From a virus, in the IMG/VR virus record IMGVR_UViG_3300026484_000402, positions 1 to 64,000 of that record: a DNA stretch of 64,000 nt; one strand, written 5' to 3'. Below the pieces are notes generated by a model. That model had not been told where the DNA came from. It searched no databases and was given only the letters and a program-made list of their open reading frames with translations. Below are positions 5,049 through 32,187 of this stretch, piece after piece. The first letter of the stretch is position 1, and every line of letters begins with the position of its first letter. The position numbers and the translations under genes were made by a program.

Positions 5049-6800
5049 TTATTGTTGAACATTTCCGTTTTGAGATTGTGTTTTTTGTTTCTGGTCTAAA
5101 AATTCCATTCTCCATTTTACGACCGCATATAAAACAGGATTTTCTTTAGAAAGTTCATCAAGTTTTGATTTTCTAACTCCGTAATCCATATTTTGAAGCT
5201 GCTGAACATAAGTGTCTGCTTCTTGAATAATTGCCGTTTGATTTATATTCCATGCGGAAGAGTTTTCCATCATTGATTCTTGTTTTATTTTATCTTCAAG
5301 CGAAGTAGCTACATCCTGTTGATACCTTTGTAATTCTAATTGTCTTCTTATATCCTCTTTCTGTTCTTCCATCATTCTTTCTTGCTCTTTATGATAATCT
5401 AAATCAAAAAAGTCAAGCGCTGTATGTCCAGAAACTTTTCCTGCTTGAAGAAGATTTAACATATTTTGCTTATCAGCTACATCATCAATAAGTTTTATAG
5501 GAACTAATTTAACTTTAATTTGTTCTTTATTTATTCTATTAGCTATTTGTTTTATAATAAAATTAGCTACCTGTTCTAAGGATTTAGTTAATTCTATTAA
5601 TTGATTTTGTAAAACTCTAAGCGAAGCACCTGCTCCTGAATAACTTAAACCTCCTTTTACAAACTCAGGCGGGACTCCTATAGCCGTCATAATCATAGTT
5701 GAGTACGCATCTATCTCTTGAGATAATTCAAGGTTTTTACCTTCACCAAATAAATTTATAGGCTCTAGCGGAATTGGGAAAAACTTAATAGCAGTAGGGT
5801 CTTTTTTCCAGCTTTTAAGCAAAGATTCAACCTTGTTTTTTAAATCACTGCCACCCATATAATTGTATATAGGCTGTTGGTCAACCCCCTGAACTCTCGG
5901 AACTAATCCACGTAATGGAAGTATCATATCTGAATATATCTTTTCATTCATCTTTCTTAACAACAACAATGAAATCATATCAGGTATAGCTGAAGTAAGC
6001 ATAGGAATACCCCACGATGTATTAGTTGAATTGAATTTTCTATTTCTGACATGCAAAACACTTGATTCGTTAAATTTTATTTTTCCATTAGTAAGAGAAG
6101 CTATTATTATATCTCTTGGTAAATTAAACAGCTTATCTTTATTTCCGTTTTTTATAAGCTCTTTATCTGATTCTGACGGATTATAATATATTGTTTTGAC
6201 ACCGGTTATTTCATCTTCATATAAATCTATATTATTTACAGGCCAAGATATTATTTTCATTTTAGATAAATCTTCTATTGGCCTATCCGATATTGTAAAA
6301 ACTGTTTCTTTTTTACATGCAGGACAAGTTCCCAAAAACACAAGCTCCTTGTTTCTAACTTCCGGCACAAGTTTTACATCTTCAACGTTTCTTCTCTTAA
6401 ATTTAGTTTCGCAAAATGAACAAGTTATAGTTCTGTCTATTGGAAAATTAACTGAGATAAACTGGTTTGCATATAAAAGAAAATTAAATCCTATTTCTTT
6501 TAATCTTTCTATAATTCCAACTTCATCTTCTAAAATACTTTTCCAGCTTAAAGCATCATCTTGTGATAATTCAGTTAAATCATTTGACAAATAAGAAAGA
6601 CTTGTGATTGAGATTGAAGCCATTTTATCTAATGCCGACTGAACCATTGGAACATTAGCTGTAATAAAATTAACCCATTTAAACACTTCTTTTATATCAT
6701 TAGGTAACACATACTGATATATTGAAGATAAATAATTGTACTTCTTTAAAAAACTAGTATCATAAAATTCAGTGTTTATCTTTGTGAAAGATGGTGTCAT
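5049..6800 (-). CDS. Phage portal protein with Zn-ribbon insertion
   Basis: 583 aa; VLHVR...WGIPML and AIGVPPEFVKGGLSYSGA portal-like motifs; CSFC...CPAC insertion. Confidence 0.75.
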   Translation of the reverse strand: MTPSFTKINTEFYDTSFLKKYNYLSSIYQYVLPNDIKEVFKWVNFITANVPMVQSALDKMASISITSLSYLSNDLTELSQDDALSWKSILEDEVGIIERLKEIGFNFLLYANQFISVNFPIDRTITCSFCETKFKRRNVEDVKLVPEVRNKELVFLGTCPACKKETVFTISDRPIEDLSKMKIISWPVNNIDLYEDEITGVKTIYYNPSESDKELIKNGNKDKLFNLPRDIIIASLTNGKIKFNESSVLHVRNRKFNSTNTSWGIPMLTSAIPDMISLLLLRKMNEKIYSDMILPLRGLVPRVQGVDQQPIYNYMGGSDLKNKVESLLKSWKKDPTAIKFFPIPLEPINLFGEGKNLELSQEIDAYSTMIMTAIGVPPEFVKGGLSYSGAGASLRVLQNQLIELTKSLEQVANFIIKQIANRINKEQIKVKLVPIKLIDDVADKQNMLNLLQAGKVSGHTALDFFDLDYHKEQERMMEEQKEDIRRQLELQRYQQDVATSLEDKIKQESMMENSSAWNINQTAIIQEADTYVQQLQNMDYGVRKSKLDELSKENPVLYAVVKWRMEFLDQKQKTQSQNGNVQQ

Positions 6801-7606: not shown

Positions 7607-7629
7607 ATAAAACGCCTTCTTTTTGGGTA

Positions 7630-7638
7630 ATTATAACA
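7630..7638 (-). promoter_or_regulatory. Extended -10 TGTTATAAT
   Basis: Upstream of the 7606 TTG start; flanked by CCT9G / CAAAAAGAAGG arms. Confidence 0.55.
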
Positions 7639-7741
7639 AAAAAAAAGGAATCAGCGAATTTTCGAGAGGAACAAGAGTTTTTTTCTATTTGCCTAAGCAT
7701 AAAATATTGTAAACGCTTTCTTGTTTAAAATGAAAGGCATT

Positions 7742-10234
7742 CTATATGCCTTCCAAATTAATTATAAAATCAGTCATTTTCTTAGATAACGCTTTTCCTT
7801 TATTTAAAAACGATGACAACATTCCATCACTAACACTATCAAGCATTTTATGGTAATTGCTATCTATAATCATAAGAACTCTAACCATGCCATTTACTCC
7901 ATCTTTAAGTTGCTCTATATAACTTTTTATAACTGCAACAGGCGTGTCAAGAGTTGCTAAATAACTTATAATAGCAGATTCTAAAACTTTTTTATCTGCT
8001 ATCTCTTTCAACTGTTCAAGCATCTCAGGGTCTATATTTTGTACCATAAAACCATTTTCATCCACTTCTGGAGTTTGCATATTATCATCAGCTTGATTAA
8101 CCTGCTGTTGAGCGCCTATGTCACCCTGTTGTTGCGCTTGAGGCATATCTTGCTGAGTTTGAGCATTAGGTTCTTGTTGCGCTTGAGGTATACCTTGCTG
8201 AATTTGAGCATTAGGTTCTTGTTGCGCTTGCTGCATTTGTTGTTCTTGTGGTTGGGCTCCCTGGGTTTGAGCAACATAATTATCAAGCTGAACTAGTAAA
8301 TCATCTAATGATAAACCTTGTTGTTGAGCAGCTTGAATTAACTGATTTGGGTCTTGCCCTATTTGTTGACACAATTCATTTATTTTATTTATTTTTTCTT
8401 GTTCATTAGGTTGAGCTTGTTGTTGGACCTGATTGTTGACATCAATATTTTGTTCTTCTTCAGATGGTTGTTGTCCAGCAATAGCTCCGGCGGTAGCAAA
8501 TTGTTGCAACGTTGAAGTTTGAATATCAATCGATTGTTTCATTTGAGCTATTAACATCATAAGTTGTTGCATTGTAAGTTGTTGCTGTTGAGCCATTTGA
8601 ATTAATTGCGCTATTTGTTCATTAAGTTGATATAACGGAGTAACAGTATCCGGTTGCTTTGCTGCTTCTTTAATTATTTTACATATTTCTTCTTCTTTAT
8701 AACCCTCGTTTGCAAGCTTAATAACAAAACCTTCTTTTGAATAAAATTCTCCATTGTATTCAATTTTCCCATCTCTTCTTTGAGTTACTTCTGCTGTTTT
8801 TGTAAGCATAAAATTGTTAATATCTTCACTTCTAAAAAAGTCGCATCTATTTCTTGAACAACTAAAAGCTTCTTCTTTCACAAAAAACGCATTATTTTTA
8901 GGTATATACAAAATATCATTATTTCTAATAATTCTTGTAATTTCATTATCAGGAACGACAACTATCTGTTTAATCGGACCAAAAGATTGTTCTATAACAA
9001 TTCTTCCATTTTTTAATTTAATTAATTCTCCAAACAAATATCTTATATAAGAAATTTCATTACCATTGTTGATTAATAAAAACCCACTTTTTTCAGAACT
9101 TGGATTTTCGTCAATCCATTTTTTTATATGGAGTTTTATAACAGAGCTTATACTCATACCGTATTCATCTTTTTTTATACCCATAATAGGATTATCACTT
9201 TTACCAGAGGTTACACAAACTTTTTCAGAAGACAACATCATCTTTTTATCTTCTCCAAACTTTGAAGCAACAATATACGTATATGGGTTTAATTCTTTGT
9301 CAAATAAAGTATATACACCAGAATCCGATACCTCAGTCAAATTTTTAAGAAACGACTCTTTAACTAAATCTTTAAGAGTAGGAGAATTAACTTCTGCAAC
9401 TTTGGTCAATACATCAGAATTTTTTATATAAAAACCTTGTGTTGCTATTTTTTTAAATGCTTTTTCTCTCTCATATTCAGGCAATGTTTTTATTTCGTCT
9501 TTTGTAAAATACACAACTGGTTTTTTATTTGCTGAAGCGACTTTTGAAATGTCAGACAATTTAGCATATCTTTCGATTTCTGAATAATCAGATACCATTT
9601 CAATCATTTTTTTTATATTTTCATTTTTAGAAGCTATTTTAACAATACTTTTTGCAAACTCTTTATCTTTAAAAGCCATATCACTCAACATTGATGATTC
9701 GTTATTTGAAGCAGTCTTATTAATTCCAGGAAGGCCGATTTGTTTGAACTTAAGAGTTTTGAAACCGCTTAAAACATCATCAAAATTTATTTCTTTAGAA
9801 AAATTATTGGATGCAACTTTAGGAGAGTATGTCATAGGTGTAGCAAATAAGCTCCCTATAATTCCTTTATCTATAGCTATCTCCCCTTCCTTATTTTTCA
9901 TATCTTCTTTTGTCAAAACCTGACCTATTGAATTTGAAATAGAATTGACAAGCTTGTTATATAAAAGTTTTGTAAGAGCATAATACCTACCAGTATTATC
10001 GTAACCTATATACGACACACAATCTACATTTCCATCTCTATAAATTATCGGAATAGTTAAATCTATTCCTGAAATAAGTAATTTAAAAGAACCTAAAGCT
10101 TCCGAACCATCTGGATTTATTTCATCCAGGCTATATTTAACAATAAATTGAGCAAAAGCTGGATAATTTGAAATAAGTTGTGAATAAGCTTCATCCAATA
10201 TGTTTTGTTTCATTACATTAATTTTAACGCCCAT
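7742..10234 (-). CDS. Large head-associated (core/scaffold-like) protein with K-x-A sites and Gln-rich region
   Basis: 830 aa; at least 9 K-x-A sites; long Q-rich low-complexity tract; near portal. Confidence 0.55.
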   Translation of the reverse strand: MGVKINVMKQNILDEAYSQLISNYPAFAQFIVKYSLDEINPDGSEALGSFKLLISGIDLTIPIIYRDGNVDCVSYIGYDNTGRYYALTKLLYNKLVNSISNSIGQVLTKEDMKNKEGEIAIDKGIIGSLFATPMTYSPKVASNNFSKEINFDDVLSGFKTLKFKQIGLPGINKTASNNESSMLSDMAFKDKEFAKSIVKIASKNENIKKMIEMVSDYSEIERYAKLSDISKVASANKKPVVYFTKDEIKTLPEYEREKAFKKIATQGFYIKNSDVLTKVAEVNSPTLKDLVKESFLKNLTEVSDSGVYTLFDKELNPYTYIVASKFGEDKKMMLSSEKVCVTSGKSDNPIMGIKKDEYGMSISSVIKLHIKKWIDENPSSEKSGFLLINNGNEISYIRYLFGELIKLKNGRIVIEQSFGPIKQIVVVPDNEITRIIRNNDILYIPKNNAFFVKEEAFSCSRNRCDFFRSEDINNFMLTKTAEVTQRRDGKIEYNGEFYSKEGFVIKLANEGYKEEEICKIIKEAAKQPDTVTPLYQLNEQIAQLIQMAQQQQLTMQQLMMLIAQMKQSIDIQTSTLQQFATAGAIAGQQPSEEEQNIDVNNQVQQQAQPNEQEKINKINELCQQIGQDPNQLIQAAQQQGLSLDDLLVQLDNYVAQTQGAQPQEQQMQQAQQEPNAQIQQGIPQAQQEPNAQTQQDMPQAQQQGDIGAQQQVNQADDNMQTPEVDENGFMVQNIDPEMLEQLKEIADKKVLESAIISYLATLDTPVAVIKSYIEQLKDGVNGMVRVLMIIDSNYHKMLDSVSDGMLSSFLNKGKALSKKMTDFIINLEGI
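8129..8230. repeat. 45-bp tandem repeat (~2.3 copies) encoding QAQQEPNAQxQQxxP
   Basis: GTTGCGCTTG at 8131, 8176 and 8221. Confidence 0.85.
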
Positions 10235-10256
10235 TACATTTCCTTGTTTTTAATGA

Positions 10257-10265
10257 ATTATAACA
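10257..10265 (-). promoter_or_regulatory. Extended -10 TGTTATAAT
   Basis: Upstream of the 10234 ATG with AAGGA SD. Confidence 0.6.
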
Positions 10266-10281
10266 AAGTATTGAGATTTTG

Positions 10282-10488
10282 TTAAATATTTATTTCTTTA
10301 ATATCTCTTCCAACAGATGAGATATTAACCGATAATGCTACTTTTCCATCATATGACAACACTTGATTATTAACAAAAGGACAAAGGTTAAATATGACCG
10401 CTTTTTTTTGCTCTTTGAAATAATTATCAATATCTTCGCTTTTAAGTGATACTTGACTAACAGGGATTCCTTTTATTTGTTCAGCCAT
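10282..10488 (-). CDS. Hypothetical protein
   Basis: AAAGGAG SD. Confidence 0.6.
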   Translation of the reverse strand: MAEQIKGIPVSQVSLKSEDIDNYFKEQKKAVIFNLCPFVNNQVLSYDGKVALSVNISSVGRDIKEINI

Positions 10489-10537
10489 AGTTTCTCCTTT
10501 TTTTCAAATAATATCATTATTATAAATAAAAGTGAAG

Positions 10538-10744
10538 CTAAGATAGAAGTTGTCTAAAATATTCATCGTTTTGTTTTATTATATAAAAATCTATTTTTAC
10601 ATTTTCTCCTATTTTGTTATACAGTTCTTTTATATATTGTTTTGCTTTTTTCTTAGTTTTAAAAATTGCGACAACTTCTTTTTCATTATAGACATTTTCA
10701 ACATAAACGACATATATTCTTTTAAAATCTGTTTCAATTAACAA
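10538..10744 (-). CDS. Small hypothetical phage protein coupled to rep
   Basis: Overlaps the rep stop; IYVVY...VAIFKTKKKAKQY pattern common in small phage proteins. Confidence 0.6.
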   Translation of the reverse strand: MLIETDFKRIYVVYVENVYNEKEVVAIFKTKKKAKQYIKELYNKIGENVKIDFYIIKQNDEYFRQLLS

Positions 10745-11799
10745 TTTTCATCCATTACTTTTATGATTTTAGAATTAAGTTCAGTAAATTTGTTAACATC
10801 AATTTTGTATAAATCAAAATAGCATCTACCCTCTTTAAGAAAGTTATAATAATCTTCTATCTTTTTTGCAAACATATATACGTTATTATAAATTTCCATA
10901 CTTTCATCTGAATCTATGTAAACTTCTTCACCGTTTGTTGTTTTAGCAAAAATTTTACCATTAACATCTATTCCATACCATACAACTTTGTTATTAAGTT
11001 TACCGACAATAAAATATTTACCAGTACCAGAATATGTTTCACGTAAAAATCTTACAAAATTTTTAATATTTTTAACTTCAGGCTTATCATACCTGTTTTT
11101 TTTATTATCGGTTACATAAAATACAACATTATACACTCTATTTCCATCTGTTTCAGTTTTATATGTAACGTATATATCAGTGTGTTGATTTATTTCTTTT
11201 ATAGCTGGTTCTAATAATCTTCTTTTAATATCATAAAAATCATACTTATCAGAACACATGAAAAAATCTCTAAGTTCATCTATAGAATACGATATTTCTC
11301 TTTTATATTTTTTTTGTATTTCATATTTGTTTTTTAATTCTTCAAAAAGCCTTAATGAATATGGTTTTCTTAAATTTTTCATATTTTTTATATGATATTT
11401 AAGATAATTATTTTTATACTCTATCAATATAGACAACATATCTTTGTCTATATAAAATACTATGTCTTGTCTTTTTTTATATATAACTTTATCTACAAAA
11501 TGTAAAAACATTTCTTCATTGCCATTTTTAATTATTATAACTTTTGACATTAATTCTTTTATTGCTTTTTTAATTTGTTTATATATTACACTTATATCTT
11601 TGTCAAAAAGACTAAACAATTCATCTTTTTTTATAGAATAAATATAGACATCTTCTTCAGTTTTTGTAACAACTATGTTTAATAGCTGAATTGCATAAAT
11701 AGACAAGTCATATTTACTCTTCATTATTATTGAACTTTTTTTTATGCTAAATTCTTCATCTAGCTCAATTACTACAATATCATCTTTATTTTTTCCCAT
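10738..11799 (-). CDS. rep: Plasmid replication initiator, Rep_3 (RepB/RepE-like winged helix)
   Basis: KSSIIMKSKYDLS, LRKPYSLRLFEEL, YSIDELRDFF and DIKRRLLEPAIKEINQHTDIYVTY Rep_3 motifs; adjacent iterons. Confidence 0.9.
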   Translation of the reverse strand: MGKNKDDIVVIELDEEFSIKKSSIIMKSKYDLSIYAIQLLNIVVTKTEEDVYIYSIKKDELFSLFDKDISVIYKQIKKAIKELMSKVIIIKNGNEEMFLHFVDKVIYKKRQDIVFYIDKDMLSILIEYKNNYLKYHIKNMKNLRKPYSLRLFEELKNKYEIQKKYKREISYSIDELRDFFMCSDKYDFYDIKRRLLEPAIKEINQHTDIYVTYKTETDGNRVYNVVFYVTDNKKNRYDKPEVKNIKNFVRFLRETYSGTGKYFIVGKLNNKVVWYGIDVNGKIFAKTTNGEEVYIDSDESMEIYNNVYMFAKKIEDYYNFLKEGRCYFDLYKIDVNKFTELNSKIIKVMDENC

Positions 11800-11890
11800 T
11801 TCTTTCTCCTTCTTTTATTGTATCTTATAATGTAACTATAATATGTAGAAATTTGAAACCTCGTAATCACGGTACTTCCAGCGATTTTTC

Positions 11891-12008
11891 ACCGACAACT
11901 TTGCCAATAAAACAGGGGGTTAAACCGACAACTTTGCCAATAAAAATCGATTTTCACCGACAACTTTGCCAAAATAAAACAGCAACACCGACAACTTTGC
12001 CAATAAAA
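11891..12008. repeat. Four iterons ACCGACAACTTTGCCAA (plasmid-type origin)
   Basis: Identical 17-bp core at 11891, 11924, 11956 and 11987 (33/32/31-bp phasing) upstream of rep, followed by an AT-rich tract. Confidence 0.9.
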
Positions 12009-12200
12009 TTTTACCACATTTTTAATGATTTAAGGGGATATTTTTTTGAGGAAAAAAAGCTTTAATTAAAGAAAGTACAAAAGCTCCAAGTTCTGGATAT
12101 TTTTAAGATTTTTATTTTTATTTTTTCAATTTTAAATTTCCTAATAAGGTAAGGAAATAAAACTGATTTTTAATTGTTGATTTACATATAAATTCATATC

Positions 12201-12216
12201 TGATATAATTATATCA
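12201..12216. promoter_or_regulatory. Perfect palindrome TGATATAATTATATCA giving an extended -10 on each strand
   Basis: 16-bp palindrome between ori and the 12247 gene. Confidence 0.55.
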
Positions 12217-12246
12217 AATTGATAATAAAAAAACAAAGGAGCTTAC

Positions 12247-12678
12247 ATGATAGCTTTAACATTACAATCAGCATTTAACTGGGATAAGGAAACAGCTAAT
12301 TTAATAGGTCACCTAGCGTCTACTTTATCTAAAGAATCTATAGGGTTAAGTGACATAGTTTCAGCTATAAAATCTAAAGATACAGACAATGATGTAACTA
12401 TAGCAGATAATTGGATTAAATATTTGCTAAATACTGTATTTAATGGAGTAAAAGAAAAAGCTTTATCTTTAACTTCGGACAGTAATGTAACAGATGTAAT
12501 CAATAAATTAGCCGACGATTTTAACCCAGTTATAAACGGAAAAGACTCGTCTTTTGGAAATATATTAGATATATTCATTGCTAAAGAATATTCATTCCAA
12601 GAATACGCAAATGCACTTATAGGTGAAGTAATGAAAGCTGACACATACTGGAAAGGTGTTATATGCGATAATAATTGA
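12247..12678 (+). CDS. Hypothetical protein adjacent to ori
   Basis: AAAGGAG SD; own promoter. Confidence 0.7.
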   Translation: MIALTLQSAFNWDKETANLIGHLASTLSKESIGLSDIVSAIKSKDTDNDVTIADNWIKYLLNTVFNGVKEKALSLTSDSNVTDVINKLADDFNPVINGKDSSFGNILDIFIAKEYSFQEYANALIGEVMKADTYWKGVICDNN

Positions 12679-12694
12679 GCGGATTAAACTCCGC
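12679..12694. terminator. Hairpin between convergent genes
   Basis: GCGGA-TTAAAC-TCCGC. Confidence 0.35.
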
Positions 12695-13595
12695 CCATTG
12701 TTATCATAATATTGCCTTCTTCATCTTTAATCATTTTAACAGAATCGCTAGGTATCTGGTCTTGAACAATATCTCTTCCTTCTTTATATTTGGCAAAGGC
12801 ATCAAAAACTTCTAAGTAACTTTTCGGGTTTGTATCGGTATGACTATATTTAGCCACTTTATCACTATAACCAGCTATTTCTACAAAAGTCTCTATTCCC
12901 ATTTTTACAAATTTAAAAGAGACTCTACCTATTCTTTCTTTTTTACCCTCACGATATTTAAATTTAACTCTATTATCTGAAATTTTTTCAATTATTTTTT
13001 CATCAGTTATATTATCTATTTGAGCGTTAAATGAGGGGTCAAAATAAATTTCAACAGATTCTATTTCTTTTATTTCTTCTTCATTATACGTTTCATCTTT
13101 TTGTTTCTCAGAAGCTGTTTTTTGCAGCTCATAATTGCTGTCAGAATTGTCATCCTGATTTTCTTCATTTTGTTCATCTTTTTGATTCTTGTCATTATCA
13201 ACAACTTTCATTGCTACTATTGACAAATTTTTCATAGCTTCAATTTGTTCATAAGATAAGTCTATTTTTATAGAATACGCAGATGGATTCAAAGAAAGTT
13301 CTTCATTGTTAGTTATAAATTTACCGTTTTTATAAGTTGCGATTATATATCTTTCATACGGAAATCTAAGTATTACCAAATTGCCATCATCTAATGCTTT
13401 ACCAAGTTTATCTGTAACGCTGTTAGGTTTAAGTGTAGACTTTGGAGAAGGTGTTCCGTTTATTATAATTCTTCCATCAACATCATATAATGCAATTTTA
13501 CCATCAAAATCAACCATTATAAAATTTTCATCCACAGAAAGCACTTTCCCAATACCTAAGAATTCACATTTTACTTCTTGTCCTTTTACAAACAT
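12684..13595 (-). CDS. Hypothetical protein with N-terminal Tudor/SH3-like domain
   Basis: FVKGQEVKCEFLGIGKVLSVDENFIMVDF resembles the UvrD/PcrA C-terminal Tudor pattern; acidic linker with a KTAS site. Confidence 0.55.
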   Translation of the reverse strand: MFVKGQEVKCEFLGIGKVLSVDENFIMVDFDGKIALYDVDGRIIINGTPSPKSTLKPNSVTDKLGKALDDGNLVILRFPYERYIIATYKNGKFITNNEELSLNPSAYSIKIDLSYEQIEAMKNLSIVAMKVVDNDKNQKDEQNEENQDDNSDSNYELQKTASEKQKDETYNEEEIKEIESVEIYFDPSFNAQIDNITDEKIIEKISDNRVKFKYREGKKERIGRVSFKFVKMGIETFVEIAGYSDKVAKYSHTDTNPKSYLEVFDAFAKYKEGRDIVQDQIPSDSVKMIKDEEGNIMITMGGV

Positions 13596-14594: not shown

Positions 14595-14848
14595 TGTTTA
14601 TTTGTTACGCCTAGATATTTTTCTGCGGTTCTAAGTCCGGCAAGCACTCCTCCAGTGATAAGAATATCATTTAATCTAGATATTACTTCAGACGGTAATT
14701 CTATATGTATTCCAAATCCAGACAATATAGCATACGCAGTGGGATATACAATATAAATTAACACTACTGACATAACTATTGCAGCGGCTAAAACCGGTCT
14801 CCATGCTGGATTTATAAAATCTATTATTTTTTTTACCGTAGGATTCAT
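14591..14848 (-). CDS. Holin (GTA_holin_3TM-like)
   Basis: 85 aa; WRP...hydrophobic helices...LAGLRTAEK signature. Confidence 0.75.
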   Translation of the reverse strand: MNPTVKKIIDFINPAWRPVLAAAIVMSVVLIYIVYPTAYAILSGFGIHIELPSEVISRLNDILITGGVLAGLRTAEKYLGVTNKH

Positions 14849-15891
14849 TTTGTCTCCCTTCTTGCTGGAACTGTTATTTTAATTATTGTTCCGTTCTCAT
14901 CTGAATTAACCACTTCTTCATTACCATTTGCCGAATTTATTATTTCTTTACATAGATACATTCCAAATCCTCTTCCATTGCCTTTTGTGCTTTTTCCTAA
15001 ATCCCATATATTTGCAACCATATCCGGTGGTATTCCTTCTCCATTATCTATTATATAGAATGTGAGAATTTTATTTTCACAATCATATGATATATATTTA
15101 ATTTTTACTATCGAAGCATTTGCGTCTAAGCTGTTTTGTATATGATTATTTAAAACATTTAGCATTTCAACGGGTTTCATTGTTGTTAAATAAAAACATT
15201 TAAGTTCTTCCGAAACATAATAATCAAAATTATATTTATTAAACATACTAAACATTGAAAAAACATTATTTGCTATATTGTATAACGAGTCCTGATTTTT
15301 TAGTTTGTTATCTTTTATGCTTTTTATCATACCTAACGTTTCAAACATGCTATTTATTGAATTTTCTATTAAAGAACTATTTATTTGTATATCTTTTATA
15401 AGTTTAATATTTCCGTCACAATATCCTGTTAAAGAACAATTTTTACAATCTCTCGTTTTTTCATTACAACCATATACTATTCTATCTATGTTTCTTTTTC
15501 CATCTCTCTTTGCAGATGATACGAGTGTTTTTATTATCCTGTTGTTTTCCTCAAAAGCATTTCTTATAGCAATTAAAGGACTCATTAGTTGATGGTCTAT
15601 ATTTTGCATTAACGAATATGTTATTTTGTATGACAGAATATTTTTTTCTTTATTCAAGTATGTTTCAAATGTAATCTTAAAAAGGTTTGATATTTTATAT
15701 AAAAAAACAAAAAAACTTAAAACAATGAATAATGATTTTATTATCCACATCATATGCCCATTATCACAACAAGGGCATTTATTTAAATATTCAAATAAAA
15801 GCTCTATTAAGAATATTGATATTATAAAAATTAGTGTTATTTTTATAGCTTCGTGTATATGTTTTTTTGATTTATTATAATTCTTAAACAT
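14845..15891 (-). CDS. Membrane-bound sensor histidine kinase with Cys-rich insertion
   Basis: Two TMs; H-box NIDHQLMSPL; N-box NNHIQNSLDA; G1 DNGEGI; G2 GRGFGMYL; C-x6-C-x2-C-x5-C insertion. Confidence 0.9.
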   Translation of the reverse strand: MFKNYNKSKKHIHEAIKITLIFIISIFLIELLFEYLNKCPCCDNGHMMWIIKSLFIVLSFFVFLYKISNLFKITFETYLNKEKNILSYKITYSLMQNIDHQLMSPLIAIRNAFEENNRIIKTLVSSAKRDGKRNIDRIVYGCNEKTRDCKNCSLTGYCDGNIKLIKDIQINSSLIENSINSMFETLGMIKSIKDNKLKNQDSLYNIANNVFSMFSMFNKYNFDYYVSEELKCFYLTTMKPVEMLNVLNNHIQNSLDANASIVKIKYISYDCENKILTFYIIDNGEGIPPDMVANIWDLGKSTKGNGRGFGMYLCKEIINSANGNEEVVNSDENGTIIKITVPARRETK

Positions 15892-17142: not shown

Positions 17143-17565
17143 TTAAAAAGGTATCTCACTCTCGTCTATATTGTCTCCGTATTCATTATCGTAGTATTGA
17201 TAATTTTTATTTTTTTCTTGATTGTTCTTGTTGTTTGCATTATTGTTCTTTTTTGACAATATTCTAATATCGGAAGCAAGGACATATGTTTTACTTTTAT
17301 TGTTTCCATCTTTGTCTTTCCAAGTGTCTATTTTTATTTTTCCTGATAATTCAATTAAATCACCTTTATTTGTATAATTGTTTATAAATTCAGCATTGTT
17401 ACCCAATAATTTAATTGGGATAAATTCAGTAACTTCTTGATATGCCCCTTTTACTTTTTCATTGTCAGATACAGCTATATTTATTTCTAAAATACTAAAC
17501 CCATTTGGTGTTTTTGTTAGCTCTCTTTTAGAAGATATTCTTCCAGATAAACATACTTTGTTCAT
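17143..17565 (-). CDS. ssb: Single-stranded DNA-binding protein
   Basis: MNKVCLSGRI, KGDLIELSGKI, acidic C-terminus ending EIPF. Confidence 0.95.
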   Translation of the reverse strand: MNKVCLSGRISSKRELTKTPNGFSILEINIAVSDNEKVKGAYQEVTEFIPIKLLGNNAEFINNYTNKGDLIELSGKIKIDTWKDKDGNNKSKTYVLASDIRILSKKNNNANNKNNQEKNKNYQYYDNEYGDNIDESEIPF

Positions 17566-17966: not shown

Positions 17967-19368
17967 TTACAATATATGAAATATTGTTTAAAAGAATGGC
18001 TAATTCAGATGAGGATTTTAACACCTCTTCAATAGTTAATGCAGAATCATAAATGTCTTTTGCGTCATCAATATTGTAACCGTTCTTTTCAATTTTATTT
18101 TTTATAGCTGAAAAAATTTCAACAAAAGCATTAGGATTGGATGTTATATCATTAAGCTTCAAATAACTTTTACCAGCGCCTGGCATTGCGCCGTATATTT
18201 TTGATTTGTAATATGAATGAAGAGCATCGTCAACTCTGTCTCTTATCTCTTTTGCTTTGTTCTCTATTGACGTACCTATTATTATTTTCACAACTTCTCT
18301 TTCAAGTATTGCCAATATGGCTCTATATTTCGCAGCTTCATAATCATCTTTTGAATCACGTAACATAGCTTTGTATTTTTCTATTAGTTTAAAATCTTTT
18401 TCTCCTTCAATGTTCTCAACAGTTAAATAATTGTTATGAAAAAAAGCATTTTTAGGCGGTGTAAAGCCGTCAATATCAACATCTGACAAATATGCTCCAT
18501 AATCAATTCCACTAATAGGAGCATTCAAAGAAGAAGATATTATTTTTATAATATCAACGTTTTTCATAACTTCATCTCCACCTACAACAATAGGTAATAT
18601 ATTCATTACGCCTTGGAGGTGATTTATGGATAAAACACCTATTGCATCATCACTAAACCCGTTTGCTATGATAATAAGATTTTTATATCCGTACTCTCTG
18701 GCTTTTTCCAGTAGTTCAACACACTCCCTTTCTGTTTCCACTGTTCCAGCATTACAAACTATCAGAGGCGAAGGCATTTTAATTTTATTTTGATTTTCAA
18801 ATACTTCTGCAGCCGTCTTGCACCTTATTAATACACCGTTTATTATTTCCACTTTTGATTTTGAGTTAAGTTTTGTTTCAACAACTATATTATCAGATGT
18901 TGACAATTCTAGAGCTGAATTAATTAAGTCTGCCAAATTTTTATCTCCTGATACGGCAGTAAGCACTATTTTGTCTTTTATTTTATCTATATTTTTTATT
19001 TTTATTTGATTAATTTTTTCAACCATTTCTTCTATCTTTGAAGAAAGTTGCTCCTCTGTAATTTGATTGCTTTTTAATGCGTTTAGCATTTTTTCAGCCA
19101 ATACGATTGTTGATGTTGTGCCGTCACCGGCTTTCCTTAATACAGACTCAGAGGCTTCTTTTATAACCGTTACTATGTTGTTTACATATGGGTTGTTGCT
19201 TCTTATAAGTCTTAAACATGAAACACCGTCTTTTGTTGTGTGAACATTGTGCTCATTTCCTATTACAACATATTTTCCTGCCGGTCCTAAAGTTTCAGAA
19301 ACAAATCCGCTTACGTCTGATAATATCTTTTCTATCGCAGTAGGTTTTGCGAAATTGTACATTTCCAT
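17944..19368 (-). CDS. groEL: Phage chaperonin, GroEL-like (474 aa)
   Basis: TLGPAG, TKDGVS, AGDGTTS, DRVDDAL and MPGAG motifs; no GGM tail. Confidence 0.9.
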   Translation of the reverse strand: MEMYNFAKPTAIEKILSDVSGFVSETLGPAGKYVVIGNEHNVHTTKDGVSCLRLIRSNNPYVNNIVTVIKEASESVLRKAGDGTTSTIVLAEKMLNALKSNQITEEQLSSKIEEMVEKINQIKIKNIDKIKDKIVLTAVSGDKNLADLINSALELSTSDNIVVETKLNSKSKVEIINGVLIRCKTAAEVFENQNKIKMPSPLIVCNAGTVETERECVELLEKAREYGYKNLIIIANGFSDDAIGVLSINHLQGVMNILPIVVGGDEVMKNVDIIKIISSSLNAPISGIDYGAYLSDVDIDGFTPPKNAFFHNNYLTVENIEGEKDFKLIEKYKAMLRDSKDDYEAAKYRAILAILEREVVKIIIGTSIENKAKEIRDRVDDALHSYYKSKIYGAMPGAGKSYLKLNDITSNPNAFVEIFSAIKNKIEKNGYNIDDAKDIYDSALTIEEVLKSSSELAILLNNISYIVNVEVGHE

Positions 19369-20852
19369 TAAATACTCCTTATTTGATTTATAAGCGTTTT
19401 TTTGTCTGAATACGACATTGAAGATTGTTTAATTTGATTGATTTTTTTTAATTTTAAGCTTTCAATTACGCCTTCATACATTTCATCAAATTCTTCGTCT
19501 CCTATTATGTCGCATTCTAATTTTTTAATCATTTTTTCGTTTATATCCATACCCGTTAATGTTGATAATTTTTCTATCTCTTTTTTAAGACCATTTATAA
19601 GACAATATTTTATAACCATACATTCTTCAATAGTGATGTTTGATGGTTTTTGTTGCTTAAAAATAGACACATCTCCATTTGTTTTTGCGATATATCTTTC
19701 AATTATCTCTTCTTGTATAGGGTATGGGTATTTATCTATTGTAGATTTTAGCTCATCCAATCCTTTTATTTTTTTCTCCGTATTACCACTGATTAAATAC
19801 TCAACAACAAATGCCGTTCCTGACATATTGTTTTTTATTCTTCTTAAAAACTCATTAATCCCATATTGAGAAACTATATCTGCAGGGTCGTTATCTTTTA
19901 AAAAAGTTACTTTTGGTATTACTCCGTTTTGCAGCATTATATTTGTTGCTTTATACGCAGCATTATATCCAGCTTTATCACCATCATAGCAAATCAATAT
20001 CTTTTTGTCTTTTATATGATTTAACTGCATCTTTGTAAATGCAGTACCCTGGCTTGCTACAGCTATATCAAAACCGGCTTGATGTAAGAGTATTACATCT
20101 ATTTGCCCTTCTACTAAAACAATTTTTTTTCTTTTTTTATCTACGAAATTTAACCCATATAAAATATTTCTTTTTTTAAAATATTCACTTTCCGGAGAAT
20201 TTACGTATTTTGACTTACTTTTACCTGTAATATCTCTCCCTGAAAAACCAACTATAGTTCCAAACTTGTTAAAAATAGGAAACATTAACCTGTTATAAAA
20301 CTTAGGATAATACTCATTTTTTTCTTTATCATATCCAAGAATTTTTAGTTTTAAATACTCTTTTACATATGAGGTATTGAGCATAAAGTTTAATACATCT
20401 TTATATGCTGGAGCATATCCTATTCCAAATTTTTCGATACTACTATCGTTTATCCCTCTCGAGTATATATATTGCTTTATTCTTTCATTTAAATTCTTTT
20501 TAAAGAAATACTGAAGCGTGTCGATAGCATTTGAGTAAAACATCTCGTCTTCATCAGAATCTTCATATTCCACCTCTACTTTTAATATATCAGCACCCCT
20601 TTTAACTGCATCAGGAAAAGTTAAACTTTCATATTCCATAATGAAGCTTATAGGCCCCTTACCTCCTTTTCCGCTTGAAAAATCTTTCCAAATACCTTTA
20701 CTTGGTGAAACAGTAAAAGAGGGTGTTTTTTCTGAATTAAACGGAGAAAAGCCAACATATAGGCTCCCCCTTTTTTTTAAATCTACATAACTACTTATTA
20801 TCTCCACCAGGTATTGATTCACTGTTTCTATTGTTGTTTGTTTTATTTTCAT
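19368..20852 (-). CDS. dnaG: DNA primase (DnaG family)
   Basis: SPFNSEKTPSF N-domain, RLMFPI...GFSGR, KYVNSPE, TOPRIM VEGQID and YDGDKAG. Confidence 0.95.
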   Translation of the reverse strand: MKIKQTTIETVNQYLVEIISSYVDLKKRGSLYVGFSPFNSEKTPSFTVSPSKGIWKDFSSGKGGKGPISFIMEYESLTFPDAVKRGADILKVEVEYEDSDEDEMFYSNAIDTLQYFFKKNLNERIKQYIYSRGINDSSIEKFGIGYAPAYKDVLNFMLNTSYVKEYLKLKILGYDKEKNEYYPKFYNRLMFPIFNKFGTIVGFSGRDITGKSKSKYVNSPESEYFKKRNILYGLNFVDKKRKKIVLVEGQIDVILLHQAGFDIAVASQGTAFTKMQLNHIKDKKILICYDGDKAGYNAAYKATNIMLQNGVIPKVTFLKDNDPADIVSQYGINEFLRRIKNNMSGTAFVVEYLISGNTEKKIKGLDELKSTIDKYPYPIQEEIIERYIAKTNGDVSIFKQQKPSNITIEECMVIKYCLINGLKKEIEKLSTLTGMDINEKMIKKLECDIIGDEEFDEMYEGVIESLKLKKINQIKQSSMSYSDKKTLINQIRSI

Positions 20853-22853: not shown

Positions 22854-24182
22854 TTATACTTCTGGTATAGCGTCTAAATCTATACTACTCATATCTATAG
22901 AAGGTGACATTTCTACAACTTGAGCAGCTTCATCGTCCCCAACCCTTACGTATTTACCGTTAAACCAAGTTTCACATACTCCAGTAGACCCGTCTCTTTG
23001 TTTTAAAATAATAAGTTCCATTTTTGATGGATTAGGCTCTTCTTTTTCTTTACCATCTTTGACAAGATAATAAGCTTCTCTGTATAGACCTATAATAGTA
23101 TCTGCATCTTCTTCTATACTACCAGATTCTCTTAGGTCCGATAATGTAGGTCTTCTGTTTGGTCTATTTTCTATAGACCTGTTTAGCTGTGACAGCAACC
23201 ATATTTTAGCACCGGTTGTTTTTGCCACTTTTTTTAATTTTTTCGTTATATATCCAACTTTGTGATGTGTGCTAGAAAAATCTTCATCAACCGTTATCCA
23301 ACCTAAATGGTCGATGAAAAAATCCTCGATTTCAGGGTTAGACATTCTTATTTTTGTAATCATATTGCAAATACTTGTTATGTTATTGACGCTGTCAATT
23401 ACATTGAACCATCTATCGAGCGATATTAACTTTTTCTTTGCTTCAAGATATTTGTTATAATCGCTCAATCTCCCTTTTATAATTTCATTTATGGGAATTT
23501 CCCCAACATTTGATAATGCTCTGGCAGTAATTTTTTCTTCAGGCATTTCAAGAGAAAATATCACACTCCCTTTTTTTAACTTCGCCTTATTTAAAGCTAC
23601 CGAGACAATAAAGCCTGTTTTACCCATAGATGGTCTAGCACCAACAACAATTAAATCCCCAGGAGATGTTACAAGCCTATTATCTAAAGATGGTATTCCA
23701 GTTACGCTTACATTGTTTTTTATTTCTTCCATCTGTTTTTCTAATTTTTCTATTTGTTGCTCAACTGTATTTATAGTAACATCTTCAGATGGAATTTCAA
23801 CGTTTGATAATTCAGAATTGATGTCTATTTTTTCGCCATTTTTTATTTTTTCTAGCATTAAAGAAAGTTTGGCGGTCAACTGTCTATTATAATATGCCTC
23901 TTGAATATTTTTTAAATGTATAGGCATTGTTTTATCTGTTGCTACTACACCAAGTAAAACATCCTGAACTTCTGTGTTGTTATCGGGAAAGAAAGACATT
24001 ATTATGTCGTCACTAATGTCTTCTTTCCTAAAAAACAAATCAAATATAATGTCATATATTTGTTGATGTATAGTTAAGAAAAAATGTTTTTTATTAATGT
24101 CGGCTATATATTTTTCTCTTAACTTTTCTACTTTTATTAATGTGGAAAGTATTATTTTCTCTGAAGGTATATTGCTCAACAT
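22854..24182 (-). CDS. dnaB: Replicative DNA helicase
   Basis: GARPSMGKT, FSLEM, LSQLNR, DLRESGSIEEDAD, KQRDG. Confidence 0.95.
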   Translation of the reverse strand: MLSNIPSEKIILSTLIKVEKLREKYIADINKKHFFLTIHQQIYDIIFDLFFRKEDISDDIIMSFFPDNNTEVQDVLLGVVATDKTMPIHLKNIQEAYYNRQLTAKLSLMLEKIKNGEKIDINSELSNVEIPSEDVTINTVEQQIEKLEKQMEEIKNNVSVTGIPSLDNRLVTSPGDLIVVGARPSMGKTGFIVSVALNKAKLKKGSVIFSLEMPEEKITARALSNVGEIPINEIIKGRLSDYNKYLEAKKKLISLDRWFNVIDSVNNITSICNMITKIRMSNPEIEDFFIDHLGWITVDEDFSSTHHKVGYITKKLKKVAKTTGAKIWLLSQLNRSIENRPNRRPTLSDLRESGSIEEDADTIIGLYREAYYLVKDGKEKEEPNPSKMELIILKQRDGSTGVCETWFNGKYVRVGDDEAAQVVEMSPSIDMSSIDLDAIPEV

Positions 24183-24198
24183 TTACATCTCCTTCTGT

Positions 24199-25194
24199 TT
24201 ACCCTTCGAACCCAACCTCTTCTTCAATATTGTATTTATACCAATTAGGTAAAGATATAACTTGAAAAGGTGTTTTCTTTTTGTCTTCGAAATTCATTTC
24301 ATAACCAAACCAGTCACCAGTTTCAGTACAGTATGAATACTGTTCTAAAACCTTTTTGGCAATTTTGTCGGTATAGTATGTGATATCTTCGGGAGATATA
24401 ACCAGTCCGTTAACAAGATAAGGCCTTGTTTTTTCAACCGCAACAAAGCCAAACATTTTTTTAGCATCTCCTCCTAACTCACATATTCTTAAATACAGCC
24501 AGTTTTGCAAATCGTATCCGAATTTTGCACTTGTTGCTGAGAAGTCGCTTGCGTTAGCTGAAGTTGTTGTTTTTAAATCAAGTACTTTATCGTTAGTGTC
24601 AGCATCCACTTTAACTCTCAATACGCATTTGTATTCATCGTCCCACACAAACATTGCTCTCTCATTGTGTCCGCTTCTTAATAATTGTAAGAAGTTGTAG
24701 TGATTTTTTAATGATTCCGCCATCCCTTCAATATCTTTAAACACTGTATCTTTTATTAATTCTTTTCCTTTTGCGTCTTCAGCATATTTTTTATAAGCAG
24801 CACTGTTTTTTCTAACTTCTCCAGGATATACAAAATACTCATTATAAAAGTCATTAGGTTCTAGCACGTATTTGTGAAATGCCCTACCAAAAACAAGAGC
24901 ATCTCTGTTTTGCTTTTCTGGATAATCTTTTAAGGCTCTATATTTTGCCGGTGTGTTGTGATAAATTGACTTCATCCCTGATGAACTTAAACCAGGAGTC
25001 AATGGATTATGATATAAATAGTCTTCTAGTTTTATCCATTCACCAAGAGGTATTCCAAGCACTTCAAGCTGTTCTTTTTCGTCCATTAAGTCCCATTCAA
25101 TAGGGTCTATTCCAAGCAATTCCAACATTGAATCTTTGTCATTATTTTGGTATACTTCATCAAACGTTAATTCCATAAATTTTTTAGTAGCCAT
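24199..25194 (-). CDS. RecE/exonuclease VIII-like PD-(D/E)XK exonuclease (DUF3799-like)
   Basis: LSSSGMK, FGRAFHKYVLEP, KVD...DLKTT, YDLQ; adjacent to recT. Confidence 0.85.
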   Translation of the reverse strand: MATKKFMELTFDEVYQNNDKDSMLELLGIDPIEWDLMDEKEQLEVLGIPLGEWIKLEDYLYHNPLTPGLSSSGMKSIYHNTPAKYRALKDYPEKQNRDALVFGRAFHKYVLEPNDFYNEYFVYPGEVRKNSAAYKKYAEDAKGKELIKDTVFKDIEGMAESLKNHYNFLQLLRSGHNERAMFVWDDEYKCVLRVKVDADTNDKVLDLKTTTSANASDFSATSAKFGYDLQNWLYLRICELGGDAKKMFGFVAVEKTRPYLVNGLVISPEDITYYTDKIAKKVLEQYSYCTETGDWFGYEMNFEDKKKTPFQVISLPNWYKYNIEEEVGFEG

Positions 25195-25208: not shown

Positions 25209-26156
25209 TTATTTATTTTCAACCGGTTCATAAACAATATCTTCTTCTTCACTTATTTCATATTCAACAATAGATTGCGCTTTCCCAACCAAATGGTCCG
25301 GCAATTTGGCTGTTGTTGTTAATTTTAATTTATCTATAAGTTCCTCAGGGATGTCTTTCTTGGATACTTTTACATATCCCTTTTTCAGTTCATATTCAAC
25401 TCCCATATCATCCAAAGCCATCTGTAAGGTAACTTTTTTTTCGACTTCTTGATTTAATTCTTCTATAGCCTCATAAGTGCTGTCTACTTTTTCACTTTTT
25501 TCAATTTCATCAATTGTTGCATAATTTTCATTGTCTATCTCTGTAGCGTATCTTAATGATTCTGGGACAGGAATCATTTTAACCAATCTTTTTAACGGGA
25601 CTTTTTTCGCTACTTCATCAAACCAAGTATCCCATACAGTATGTTTTCCTTTTGATTTGATTTTAGCTGCTTTCCGAGCCTCATTTAATTCATTTAAATT
25701 AGCAGTAGCAATTACAACTTCTCCGCTTGGTAAAACGCCTCTTGCATAGGCACCTATAACCCTATTGTCAGTATTAAATGGATTAACAGTATGTTTTATT
25801 TCAGTTTTTCCATTGTCAATATTTATTTGAAAGTTTTCACCCTCTCTTACTACATATGCATCCACTAATTTAAAAACCCCATATTCAATAAGTTTTTTGG
25901 GCCAAAATGTATATTTTTGTTCAATTTTAATTGTTCCATTGTACACTATAATATAAATATCATCTACAGCTGACAATTCTGGGTCTGCTGTGATAATTTT
26001 AAGTATAGTATTTAAAACAGCTTCTTTAGGTGGAATTTCTTTTTGATAGATTTTATTTAACAGTAATGAAAGTTTGTTTTTTTTTAAAGCATCAACTTTT
26101 AAATCAAGTTCTTTTACTATTTCTTCTACAGTTAATTTATTATTTCTTGCAGCCAT
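25209..26156 (-). CDS. recT: RecT-family single-strand annealing protein
   Basis: VVREGENF, VIGAYA, WDTWFDEVAKKVPLKRLVKMIP. Confidence 0.85.
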   Translation of the reverse strand: MAARNNKLTVEEIVKELDLKVDALKKNKLSLLLNKIYQKEIPPKEAVLNTILKIITADPELSAVDDIYIIVYNGTIKIEQKYTFWPKKLIEYGVFKLVDAYVVREGENFQINIDNGKTEIKHTVNPFNTDNRVIGAYARGVLPSGEVVIATANLNELNEARKAAKIKSKGKHTVWDTWFDEVAKKVPLKRLVKMIPVPESLRYATEIDNENYATIDEIEKSEKVDSTYEAIEELNQEVEKKVTLQMALDDMGVEYELKKGYVKVSKKDIPEELIDKLKLTTTAKLPDHLVGKAQSIVEYEISEEEDIVYEPVENK

Positions 26157-30447: not shown

Positions 30448-32187
30448 ATGGACGCTGTATCTGCTTTAAACAGTTTTCTTCCAGATGAATTTCATATTAA
30501 AAAAAGCGACTTACCACTTACAAAAGCAAAATTAAATAAGTTATTAACAGAATATGCTAAAAAATATCCTGACCACTACGCAAAAAATATACATAAAATA
30601 GGTGATTTAGGAGAAGAGTTGGCATACTTACACGGACATCACGTAGGTATAAATGATTTGCTGCACCCCAATAGAAAAAAAATAGAATCTTTTTTAGAAA
30701 AAGAAAATAAAAAACTGTCTTTAATGAGTACAGAAAAGAAAAAAGAACATTTAATAAAATTATTTGATAAAGTCCAAGAGTTAACTATGGAACCTGATGG
30801 CAACCATTTAGTTGACCAAGGAAAATCGAGAAGTAGAGGAAATCCAGCTACAATAACTAGAACAATTGGGGCTTCAGTATATACTGTAGATATGAATTCT
30901 GAGCCATTTCCTTTCCTAATTAAAAATTCATTATCATCAGGGTATAGGAGTCATGAAATGTTTGCTGCAGGTTCCCAAGCCAGATATGCAGCCGTACAAT
31001 CTGCTACTTCAACATCTGAACCTGGAGCTATGAGTAAAGTTTTAGTGGCTAACACAGAACATTTAAAAATATGTTGTAAAGACTGTGGCACTAAAAATGG
31101 TATTGAATATAAAATTGATGACTCCCAAATAATAGGAAGATATGAAGCAGGCACCAACAGATTAATAACTAAAGATTACGTTAATCAATTGAAAAAACAA
31201 AGAAAAAAAACAATAGTAGTAAGAGACCCTATTACTTGTCAAGCTAAAGACGGAATATGCGCAATGTGTTATGGACATAATGCAATGGGTAAATTATATG
31301 AACCAGGGCACAATATAGGCATTCAGGCTTCACAAACAGTAGGTGAAAAAGCAACTCAGCTTGTTTTGTCAGCTAAACATAACATAAAAGGTAAATTAAC
31401 ATCTAATATACCTACAGGTTTTGAAGCACAAAAAATCTTATTAAATACTCCTAAATCTTTTAGAGGGAAAGCCACTATATCAACTACAGATGGTAAAGTT
31501 GAAAAAATAGAAAGATTAAACACTGGTGGATATAATGTAGTAATAGCGGGGAAAACTCATTATATTTCTCCAGAAGTCAAACCAAAAGTCAAAGTTGGCG
31601 ATGAGGTTTTCAAAGGGCAAACGTTAAGCACAGGTTTAGCTTCCCCAAGAGAAATAATGGAGCATTCCGGAGTGTATCAAGCTAGAAAATATACCGTAGA
31701 TAAATTATATGAGGCAAATGGCGGAGATATAGATAAAAGAGTGTTTGGAGTTTTAGCAAGGGGATATTTGGAATTAGCTAAACATAAAAAAGATGAAATG
31801 CACGAATTACATAATTATGATGCATTATTGCACACTATAGAAGAGCCTAATACACATATTGTCAAGGTTTCAGATAGACAGATTACAAATAAATATCTAG
31901 CCCAGCCTTTTTTACATTATAGTCCTGGTACTAAAATTACACCTGGAATAGTTAAAAAAATGAAACAACACGGATTAAAAGAAGTAAAGGTATCTCATAA
32001 TCCATTTCCTATTGTACCAGTATATAAAACTTATGAACAAAAACCATTGGCAAATACAACAATTTGGCAGAAAATGAATTATAGAGGAATTAAAAAAGGA
32101 TTAACAGGAGAGCTTTTATATAATAAAGAAACTGATATCAATAGATTGCAAAGTGATAGGGCTAAATACACTCTTGGGAGATTGTAA
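30448..32187 (+). CDS. Multisubunit RNA polymerase beta-prime C-terminal half (split subunit)
   Basis: SRGN, bridge-helix-like ARYAAVQSATSTSEPGAMSKVL, Zn site DCGT...RDPITC...GICAMCYG, trigger loop ASQTVGEKATQLVLSAKH; no NADFDGD. Confidence 0.9.
   Translation: MDAVSALNSFLPDEFHIKKSDLPLTKAKLNKLLTEYAKKYPDHYAKNIHKIGDLGEELAYLHGHHVGINDLLHPNRKKIESFLEKENKKLSLMSTEKKKEHLIKLFDKVQELTMEPDGNHLVDQGKSRSRGNPATITRTIGASVYTVDMNSEPFPFLIKNSLSSGYRSHEMFAAGSQARYAAVQSATSTSEPGAMSKVLVANTEHLKICCKDCGTKNGIEYKIDDSQIIGRYEAGTNRLITKDYVNQLKKQRKKTIVVRDPITCQAKDGICAMCYGHNAMGKLYEPGHNIGIQASQTVGEKATQLVLSAKHNIKGKLTSNIPTGFEAQKILLNTPKSFRGKATISTTDGKVEKIERLNTGGYNVVIAGKTHYISPEVKPKVKVGDEVFKGQTLSTGLASPREIMEHSGVYQARKYTVDKLYEANGGDIDKRVFGVLARGYLELAKHKKDEMHELHNYDALLHTIEEPNTHIVKVSDRQITNKYLAQPFLHYSPGTKITPGIVKKMKQHGLKEVKVSHNPFPIVPVYKTYEQKPLANTTIWQKMNYRGIKKGLTGELLYNKETDINRLQSDRAKYTLGRL

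Follow-up and report, generated by a model that had tools for sequence, protein, structure and literature searches.

Plasmid initiators such as RepE of F, pi of R6K and RepA of pPS10 and pSC101 share two winged-helix domains (WH1 and WH2), and their genes lie downstream of direct repeats (iterons) that stand beside an AT-rich tract. Read towards rep, origins of the pPS10 and pSC101 type classically run from an AT-rich tract through the iterons and a leader to rep itself. Phages also use origin-binding initiators: lambda O is one of them, and the lambda origin holds four iterons beside an AT-rich region. Here we describe a Rep_3/iteron replicon in a stretch of viral DNA of 64,000 nucleotides (the window), which comprises bases 1-64000 of the IMG/VR record IMGVR_UViG_3300026484_000402. 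This record, G000 below, is linear, has 80,340 bp and is rated 43% complete by CheckV. An earlier note on the window had described a Rep_3 gene with iterons in a phage that encodes a multisubunit RNA polymerase (RNAP), and had raised the possibility that this phage lives as a plasmid prophage.

The locus has the layout of the plasmid origins: in the orientation of rep, an AT-rich tract is followed by the iterons, a leader and the gene (Table 1). It differs from the RepE, pi and RepA systems in several ways. In fold alignments the identity of the proteins is about 20%, the phage Rep has an extra C-terminal domain of about 115 amino acids, no convincing DnaA box is seen, and the replicon sits in a phage of 177 kb. 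The size is that of a relative, IMGVR_UViG_3300028534_000013 (G001; 176,653 bp, CheckV 100%, IMG/VR class linear), of which positions 30,033-110,733 are collinear with G000 at about 82% nucleotide identity. On balance we think it somewhat likely that the replicon of a small plasmid was captured by a hydrothermal-vent phage of about 177 kb, became fixed in it and is now its own origin and initiator. The Rep_3/iteron origin module is already a known type; its setting in a large RNAP-encoding vent phage is what is new.

Rep, iterons and the AT-rich tract

The rep gene is intact, as the earlier note had it. Its product matches both Pfam models of the family above their cut-offs (PF01051 and PF21205, at 65.5 and 65 bits): Rep3_N/WH1 covers residues 19-155 (E 8.7e-18) and Rep3_C/WH2 residues 172-228 (E 7.6e-18). 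Further, it matches PHROG 4402, 'replication initiation protein'. A profile built from 23 full-length homologues finds RepE of F (1rep, 2z9o) at about 5e-25, and also pi of R6K (2nra) and RepA of pPS10 (1hkq). In agreement with the profile, the AlphaFold (AF2) model (predicted local distance difference test, pLDDT, 82) has its best superposition with the pi-iteron complex 2nra_C (Z 19.4; root mean square deviation 2.7 A for 219 residues). Rep is thus a member of the Rep_3 family on all three counts, sequence, profile and fold. The Rep of G001 is 94% identical.

The additional C-terminal domain (about residues 240-353) is conserved among the nearest relatives of Rep, and is common to the Reps of small vent and Arcobacter plasmids. 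Modelled alone (window 10741-11094, residues 236-353) it reaches a pLDDT of 94 and consists of a helix, a four-stranded sheet and four helices. A fold match in the PDB is absent (Foldseek none at E<=0.001; best VIA Z 4.1), which by itself is no proof of a new fold. The domain is a candidate interaction module, for a helicase or for oligomerisation.

Upstream of rep there are four direct repeats, at 11886-11912, 11919-11945, 11951-11977 and 11982-12008. Their start-to-start spacing is 33, 32 and 31 bp, about three helical turns, which bears out what the earlier note had said of 17-bp iterons at this phase. Each contains an exact 16-nt core, CCGACAACTTTGCCAA, of which no other copy exists in the 80-kb contig. 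When up to two mismatches are allowed, five sites are found against 0.02 expected from 100 shuffles. The exact cores begin 92 nt upstream of the rep start codon. In an alignment with G001 all four cores are invariant, in contrast to the spacers and the AT-rich tract, which have diverged; this selective conservation, between genomes that are about 82% identical, supports a role of the array as the phage origin. The array is a single cluster, and a second one of the copy-control kind was not seen.

A lone iteron-like site of 21 nt, CACCTACAACTTTGCCAATAT, with one mismatch to the iteron, is found in the relative at G001:18333-18353 (L003:18333-18353). It lies inside a coding sequence, 24 kb away from the proposed origin, in a part of the genome outside the G000 contig. 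By analogy with SPP1 oriR it could be a second Rep-binding site.

On the far side of the iterons from rep, the tract that the earlier note had called AT-rich is so: in 50-nt windows across 12100-12249 the A+T content is 78-88%. A strong extended -10 promoter-like site, TTTACA-17-TGATATAAT, lies at 12181-12209 on the plus strand, ahead of the divergent gene that begins at 12247. A DnaA box within one mismatch of TTATCCACA, a consensus that the host may not share, was not found; the closest sites differ from it at two positions. As single-stranded DNA the tract folds like its shuffles, with nothing unusual. An Rfam scan of the window and the contig end returned tRNAs only, and no family of the ctRNA type near rep. 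GC skew tracks the direction of transcription and does not point to an origin.

The extended -10 of the promoter-like site is overlapped by a palindrome, ATCTGATATAA/TTATATCAAAT, at 12198-12219. The motif GATATAATTAT recurs on the minus strand of G000 at 75751 and 76022, and may represent an operator or a class of phage promoter.

In the rep leader a consensus scan called no sigma-70 site, and the promoter placed there in Table 1 is putative. A part of the plus strand, 1022-1044, resembles the Shine-Dalgarno (SD) and start region of rep (11790-11816): it reads AAGGAGAAAGAAA[A]TGGGAAAAA, with one extra A, and was missed by a strict search that allows no indels. A similar SD/start context is seen at 26152. 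We treat the likeness as a shared ribosome-binding context that would not speak for regulation.

Plasmid relatives of the replicon and the phage that carries it

In a HMMER search of Rep against 1.84 billion representative sequences, 4374 matches had E<=1e-3 and four, including the query itself, E<=1e-30. The nearest relatives have 339-366 amino acids and align from end to end at about 27-34% identity. Those from metagenomes are carried by contigs of 1.3-5 kb, except for one on a contig of 22.5 kb. When the contigs of GTDB genomes were scanned with an alignment of eight Rep sequences, the relatives were found on contigs of 1-12.5 kb from metagenome-assembled genomes (MAGs) binned mostly as Nautiliaceae, Nautiliales and Campylobacterales, the other bins being Desulfurellales, Aquificota and Gracilibacteria. 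In PLSDB the matches that cover most of the length of Rep are plasmids of Arcobacter and Nitratiruptor.

The nearest full-length relatives, C-terminal domain included, thus belong to iteron plasmids of small size (about 2-3 kb) in MAGs from vents and to Arcobacter plasmids (CP129952.1, NC_012733.1). Of six small contigs that were examined, five have contiguous iterons of 21-23 bp, three to five in number, directly upstream of rep. These differ from the phage array, which has a pitch of about 32 bp and an unrelated sequence. The related contigs were judged plasmid-like by their size and iterons. Among cultured phages, a tblastn search with Rep gave only three weak matches, to Burkholderia phage FLC10 and a 4-kb faecal contig. 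Because its nearest Rep relatives sit on small contigs that resemble iteron plasmids, the phage replicon is of small-plasmid ancestry. This is a clear case of module capture: a 177-kb phage with its own transcription machinery and no recognisable DNA polymerase now has, as a conserved part, a replicon of the sort that is typical of 2-3-kb vent plasmids. Habitat, G+C content (29-33%) and the Rep relatives together suggest a host among vent Campylobacterota.

One of the MAG contigs, JALVYZ010000042.1 (L023; 5.1 kb), has an array of five to six iterons twice, at 1644-1794 and 4695-4866, with a distance of about 3 kb between the two. The contig probably represents a small circular plasmid whose assembly runs past one unit length.

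The earlier note was right to place the replicon beside head genes: a portal homologue is encoded nearby (Table 1), and 7742-10234 is weakly like the structural protein gp218 of Arash. This lytic Salmonella myovirus (OQ632216.1, 180.8 kb) and the Vibrio phages D69, D148 and D181 (about 187 kb) are the closest cultured relatives. Six proteins match Arash at E<1e-5, five of them at 26-33% identity and a structural protein (35862-37178) at 40%; the others are the terminase, the portal, the major capsid protein, a fused RNAP beta/beta-prime-N protein and beta-prime-C. Homologues of the terminase (Pfam GpA_ATPase, Terminase_6N) and the major capsid protein are present in the collinear G001. With the Vibrio phages only the terminase and the RNAP fusion were compared, and these gave 27-28% identity; the RNAP proteins are 28-33% identical to their counterparts in Arash and the Vibrio phages. 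The likeness to these phages consists of the shared proteins and a genome size of about 180 kb. The G+C content is different (53% in Arash against 29-33% in the vent phage), the hosts of Arash and the Vibrio phages are Gammaproteobacteria, and a megablast of 25 kb against cultured phages gave no match. The element is a phage with a multisubunit-type RNAP that is distantly related to Arash.

The RNAP itself is split in an unusual manner. One protein of 1418 amino acids fuses beta to the N-terminal part of beta-prime (G001 115160-119416, minus strand; L008:15160-19416; Rpb2_6, Rpb2_3, Rpb1_1 and Rpb1_2), and a separate protein of 579 amino acids carries beta-prime domain 5. Arash shows the same split (gp206 and gp216), and the fused protein also matches the Vibrio phages D69, D148 and D181.

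Of the other proteins that the earlier note had listed, the RNAP subunit is present, and a GroEL-like gene at 17944-19368 matches PHROG 5725 (2.8e-45). The sigma factor was not recovered, as there is no Sigma70_r2 in six frames and no BLAST match to the Arash sigma factors; nor was GroES, since 17562-17966 has no Pfam match. Status as a jumbo phage of more than 200 kb was also rejected, given the length of the complete relative.

A proposed phage origin and its alternatives

If the replicon is the origin of the phage, Rep monomers would bind the four iterons, which lie on the same face of the helix, and would open the adjoining AT-rich tract. The phage's DnaB-like helicase, DnaG-type primase and SSB would then assemble at the opened tract, and the host replicase (Pol III) would synthesise the phage DNA. 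Early rounds would be of the theta type; later the PDDEXK exonuclease together with RecT would switch replication to recombination-driven concatemers for packaging. The gene neighbourhood has these parts: rep shares its strand with the genes for SSB, primase, DnaB, exonuclease and RecT, and all of them lie within 15 kb.

The need for such an initiator follows from what else the complete relative encodes. A second Rep_3 gene is lacking in G001, apart from one sub-threshold fragment, and no DNA polymerase of family A, B or C (DNA_pol_A, DNA_pol_B, pol3_alpha) is recognised in it, so an origin binder that recruits the host polymerase would be needed. That a genome with its own DnaB, primase, SSB, RecT and RNAP has no recognisable DNA polymerase is, like the uncharacterised C-terminal domain of Rep, one of the more unusual side results. 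In G001 ten large open reading frames (ORFs) of 325-1243 amino acids, between 133.9 and 157 kb, have no PHROG match; two of them were also scanned with Pfam, with no match.

The job proposed for Rep is, by analogy, that of G38P at SPP1 oriL and of O at the lambda origin, where the initiator binds repeated origin sites and sets up a replisome that includes the host replicase. To our knowledge, G38P and O are not Rep_3 proteins. The vent phage differs from both SPP1 and lambda in that it brings its own primase. SPP1, which is lytic, likewise pairs its origin binder G38P with a DnaB-type helicase (G40P), a RecT-like recombinase (G35P), an exonuclease (G34.1P) and an SSB (G36P), and relies on the host replicase; G35P with G34.1P drives its switch to concatemers (PMC5615212). 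As lytic phages such as SPP1 also use origin-binding initiators, a Rep/iteron cassette alone does not imply carriage as a plasmid.

Rep_3 modules are found in other phages too. The unrelated siphovirus-like contig IMGVR_UViG_3300001097_000029 (L041; 33.6 kb) carries at 9790-10894 a Rep_3 gene with four iterons ahead of it at a pitch of 32/32/31 bp. RecT is encoded 1.7 kb upstream of the gene, and TerS, TerL and an SPP1-type portal follow shortly after it; by this position L041 would be a second phage in which a Rep_3 module occupies the slot of a replisome organiser. Rep_3-like genes accompanied by iterons occur in another two viral contigs, and among the proteins of uncultured phages in BFVD there are several initiators with a double winged helix. 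If the replicon is indeed a phage origin, a phage lineage that is almost wholly uncharacterised gains an origin and an initiator that are defined and open to test, and the Rep_3 family would supply replisome organisers to phages of very different sizes, with L041 as the second case. For screens of phage-plasmids it is a caution that a Rep gene alone is no sign of a plasmid lifestyle.

Some observations weigh against an origin of this kind. The gap of 5.3 kb between rep and the nearest replication gene, that for SSB, holds uncharacterised genes and a kinase-like gene, and a helicase loader was not identified. The Rep_3 gene is absent in Arash and D69, where it was searched for; Arash has instead pieces of a PolA-type polymerase and a primase of 965 amino acids. 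Rep_3 is therefore a gain of the G000/G001 lineage that the wider Arash-like group does not need. Further, family matches are few. Among 29 large ORFs scanned (24 with Pfam and 14 with PHROG, some with both), 19 had no match at the thresholds and four only sub-threshold ones. Since most proteins are without a family match, the absence of a polymerase, a partition system or a repressor means that none was recognised, and the unmatched proteins could include a polymerase of divergent sequence as well as a further initiator, a repressor or a partition system.

That a plasmid contig was misjoined into a phage contig, a chimera that the earlier note had considered, is extremely improbable. Nothing was found in its favour beyond the fact that such samples also contain small plasmids whose Reps are related, whereas the same context is present in G001, an independent IMG/VR contig. 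In Logan assemblies of hydrothermal-vent metagenomes, contigs run from the cassette into the flanks on both sides: record 12 of run X2 spans 10466-13079 with zero differences, and record 4 of run X1 spans 8511-11409. In run X5, from a different study, a strain with about 7% divergence spans 7000-13174, with short gaps at 7685-8171 and 12071-12140. The G+C content of the cassette, 24.5%, is low as in its flanks (25-31%). The ends of the assemblies are a separate matter. G000 has neither a terminal overlap nor an inverted terminal repeat and G001 has no terminal overlap; assembly ends are not true termini, so that the circularity check suggested by the earlier note was made and is uninformative on the real ends.

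The most serious rival to a phage origin is that the cassette maintains the phage outside the chromosome of a vent bacterium, as a plasmid prophage in the sense of the phage-plasmids (PMC7969092) or, over long periods, in a carrier or pseudolysogenic state. Like P1, SSU5/pHCM2 and N15 (PMC7969092), the element combines virion genes with a plasmid-type initiator. The ancestry of the replicon is of the plasmid type, much of the genome is unannotated dark matter, and any lysogeny would have to be extrachromosomal, as no integrase was found. Known phage-plasmids, such as P1 with its RepA and the SSU5 group, use iteron-binding initiators, which also counts for this possibility. However, genes of partition, integration and lysogeny were not detected in six-frame family searches of the whole 80-kb contig and of G001, in which the positive controls matched. 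The searches returned no tyrosine integrase and no serine recombinase or resolvase, so that the statement of the earlier note that the window has no integrase extends to the contig and its 176.7-kb relative. The parAB genes to which the same note had pointed did not turn up either: there is no ParA (AAA_31, CbiA) or ParB_N, no tubulin/TubZ and no protelomerase in G000 or G001, and none of the five P-loop proteins of G001 has a ParA-type (KGGxGK-type) Walker box. A search for StbA/ParM was empty, but as it was empty in the control genomes too it is uninformative. No S24 repressor peptidase was found in the two genomes and no clear repressor of the CI type, only a sub-threshold HTH_3 near the left end of G001. 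The single iteron cluster, with no copy-control array, also sets the element apart from phage-plasmids, as does the failure to find a host-resident copy: a relative of the portal was seen neither in five MAGs that carry related plasmids nor in 401 sampled genomes of that phylum. Arash, alone among the cultured relatives in having a described life cycle, is lytic; no genes for lysogeny are apparent in it, and purified virions contain its RNAP subunits in abundance (PMC10585845). A partition system would be expected in a large phage-plasmid, and plasmid-like genes have been a source of error before in large virulent phages, for example in the BigBertha group (PMC7969092). We therefore regard maintenance as a phage-plasmid as unlikely, while giving it more weight than the other rivals. 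Slightly more doubtful is the specific claim that a near-jumbo RNAP phage persists in vent Campylobacterota as a plasmid or carrier by means of a Rep_3 replicon and with no recognisable partition system; if true, it would be the first plasmid-prophage lifestyle in a large RNAP-encoding phage. Of the plasmid-prophage interpretation in the earlier note, the real replicon, its plasmid-type ancestry and the RNAP phage stand, while nothing but the Rep gene itself speaks positively for the lifestyle, and partition, integration and lysogeny genes were not detected.

The cassette might also be a passenger. A small plasmid could have recombined into the phage, for example by way of RecT, and be neutral cargo, or it could interfere with resident plasmids of the same family through Rep titration or incompatibility, with replication starting elsewhere. 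Related plasmids are abundant in the same habitat, mostly in Campylobacterota bins, the phage encodes RecT and an exonuclease, and its Arash-like relatives do without Rep_3. Against this, the cassette is intact, with invariant iterons and a well-conserved Rep, in genomes that differ by about 18% in DNA, and it is also present in the third strain, that of run X5. Another origin or initiator was not recognised. The phage iterons share neither sequence nor pitch with those of the related plasmids, and cross-titration is therefore unlikely. All in all we consider a passenger or weapon improbable, and a phage origin remains the reading to which we lean.

Features around the replicon

The features of the replicon, the neighbouring genes, the replication genes and the phage genes of the window are collected in Table 1.

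Table 1. Positions of the replicon and of the surrounding phage genes in the window.
Feature	Position	Strand	Basis
Portal	5049..6800	-	G001 orthologue (95% identical) matches Arash gp204 portal by tblastn, E 1e-50
Two 68-aa ORFs downstream of rep	10282..10744	-	Sub-threshold DUF7336 only
rep, Rep_3 initiator	10738..11799	-	353 aa; Pfam Rep3_N and Rep3_C; profile; AF2 fold match
rep leader and putative promoter	11800..11885	-	SD AAGGAG; 30-nt block ACATATTATAGTTACATTATAAGATACAAT invariant between G000 and G001
Four direct iterons	11886..12008	+	Exact 16-bp cores CCGACAACTTTGCCAA at 11892, 11925, 11957 and 11988
AT-rich tract, candidate unwinding element and candidate promoter of divergent gene	12009..12246	.	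Composition
Divergent 143-aa gene	12247..12678	+	ORF; no Pfam match; conserved in G001
SSB	17143..17565	-	Pfam SSB, E 2.3e-21
DnaG-type primase	19368..20852	-	PHROG 6444, E 8e-89
DnaB-like replicative helicase	22854..24182	-	PHROG 19, E 2.3e-70
PDDEXK exonuclease	24199..25194	-	Pfam DUF3799, E 8.6e-26
RecT recombinase	25209..26156	-	Pfam RecT, E 2.2e-13
RNAP beta-prime C-terminal subunit	30448..32187	+	Pfam RNA_pol_Rpb1_5, E 5e-11; 33% identity to Arash gp216

Between rep and the genes for SSB and primase, the minus strand at 14845-15891 encodes a protein of 348 amino acids with a C-terminus of the histidine-kinase-type ATPase kind (PHROG 857 and 10912, 'kinase').

Outside the window, a cluster of tRNA genes (Ser, Ser, Gln, Tyr) at G000 79848-80251 (L001:17849-18252) matches G001:162326-162724 in inverted orientation. 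The copy in G001 lies about 50 kb away from the collinear block, which points either to a large rearrangement between the strains or to a mis-join in one of the assemblies.

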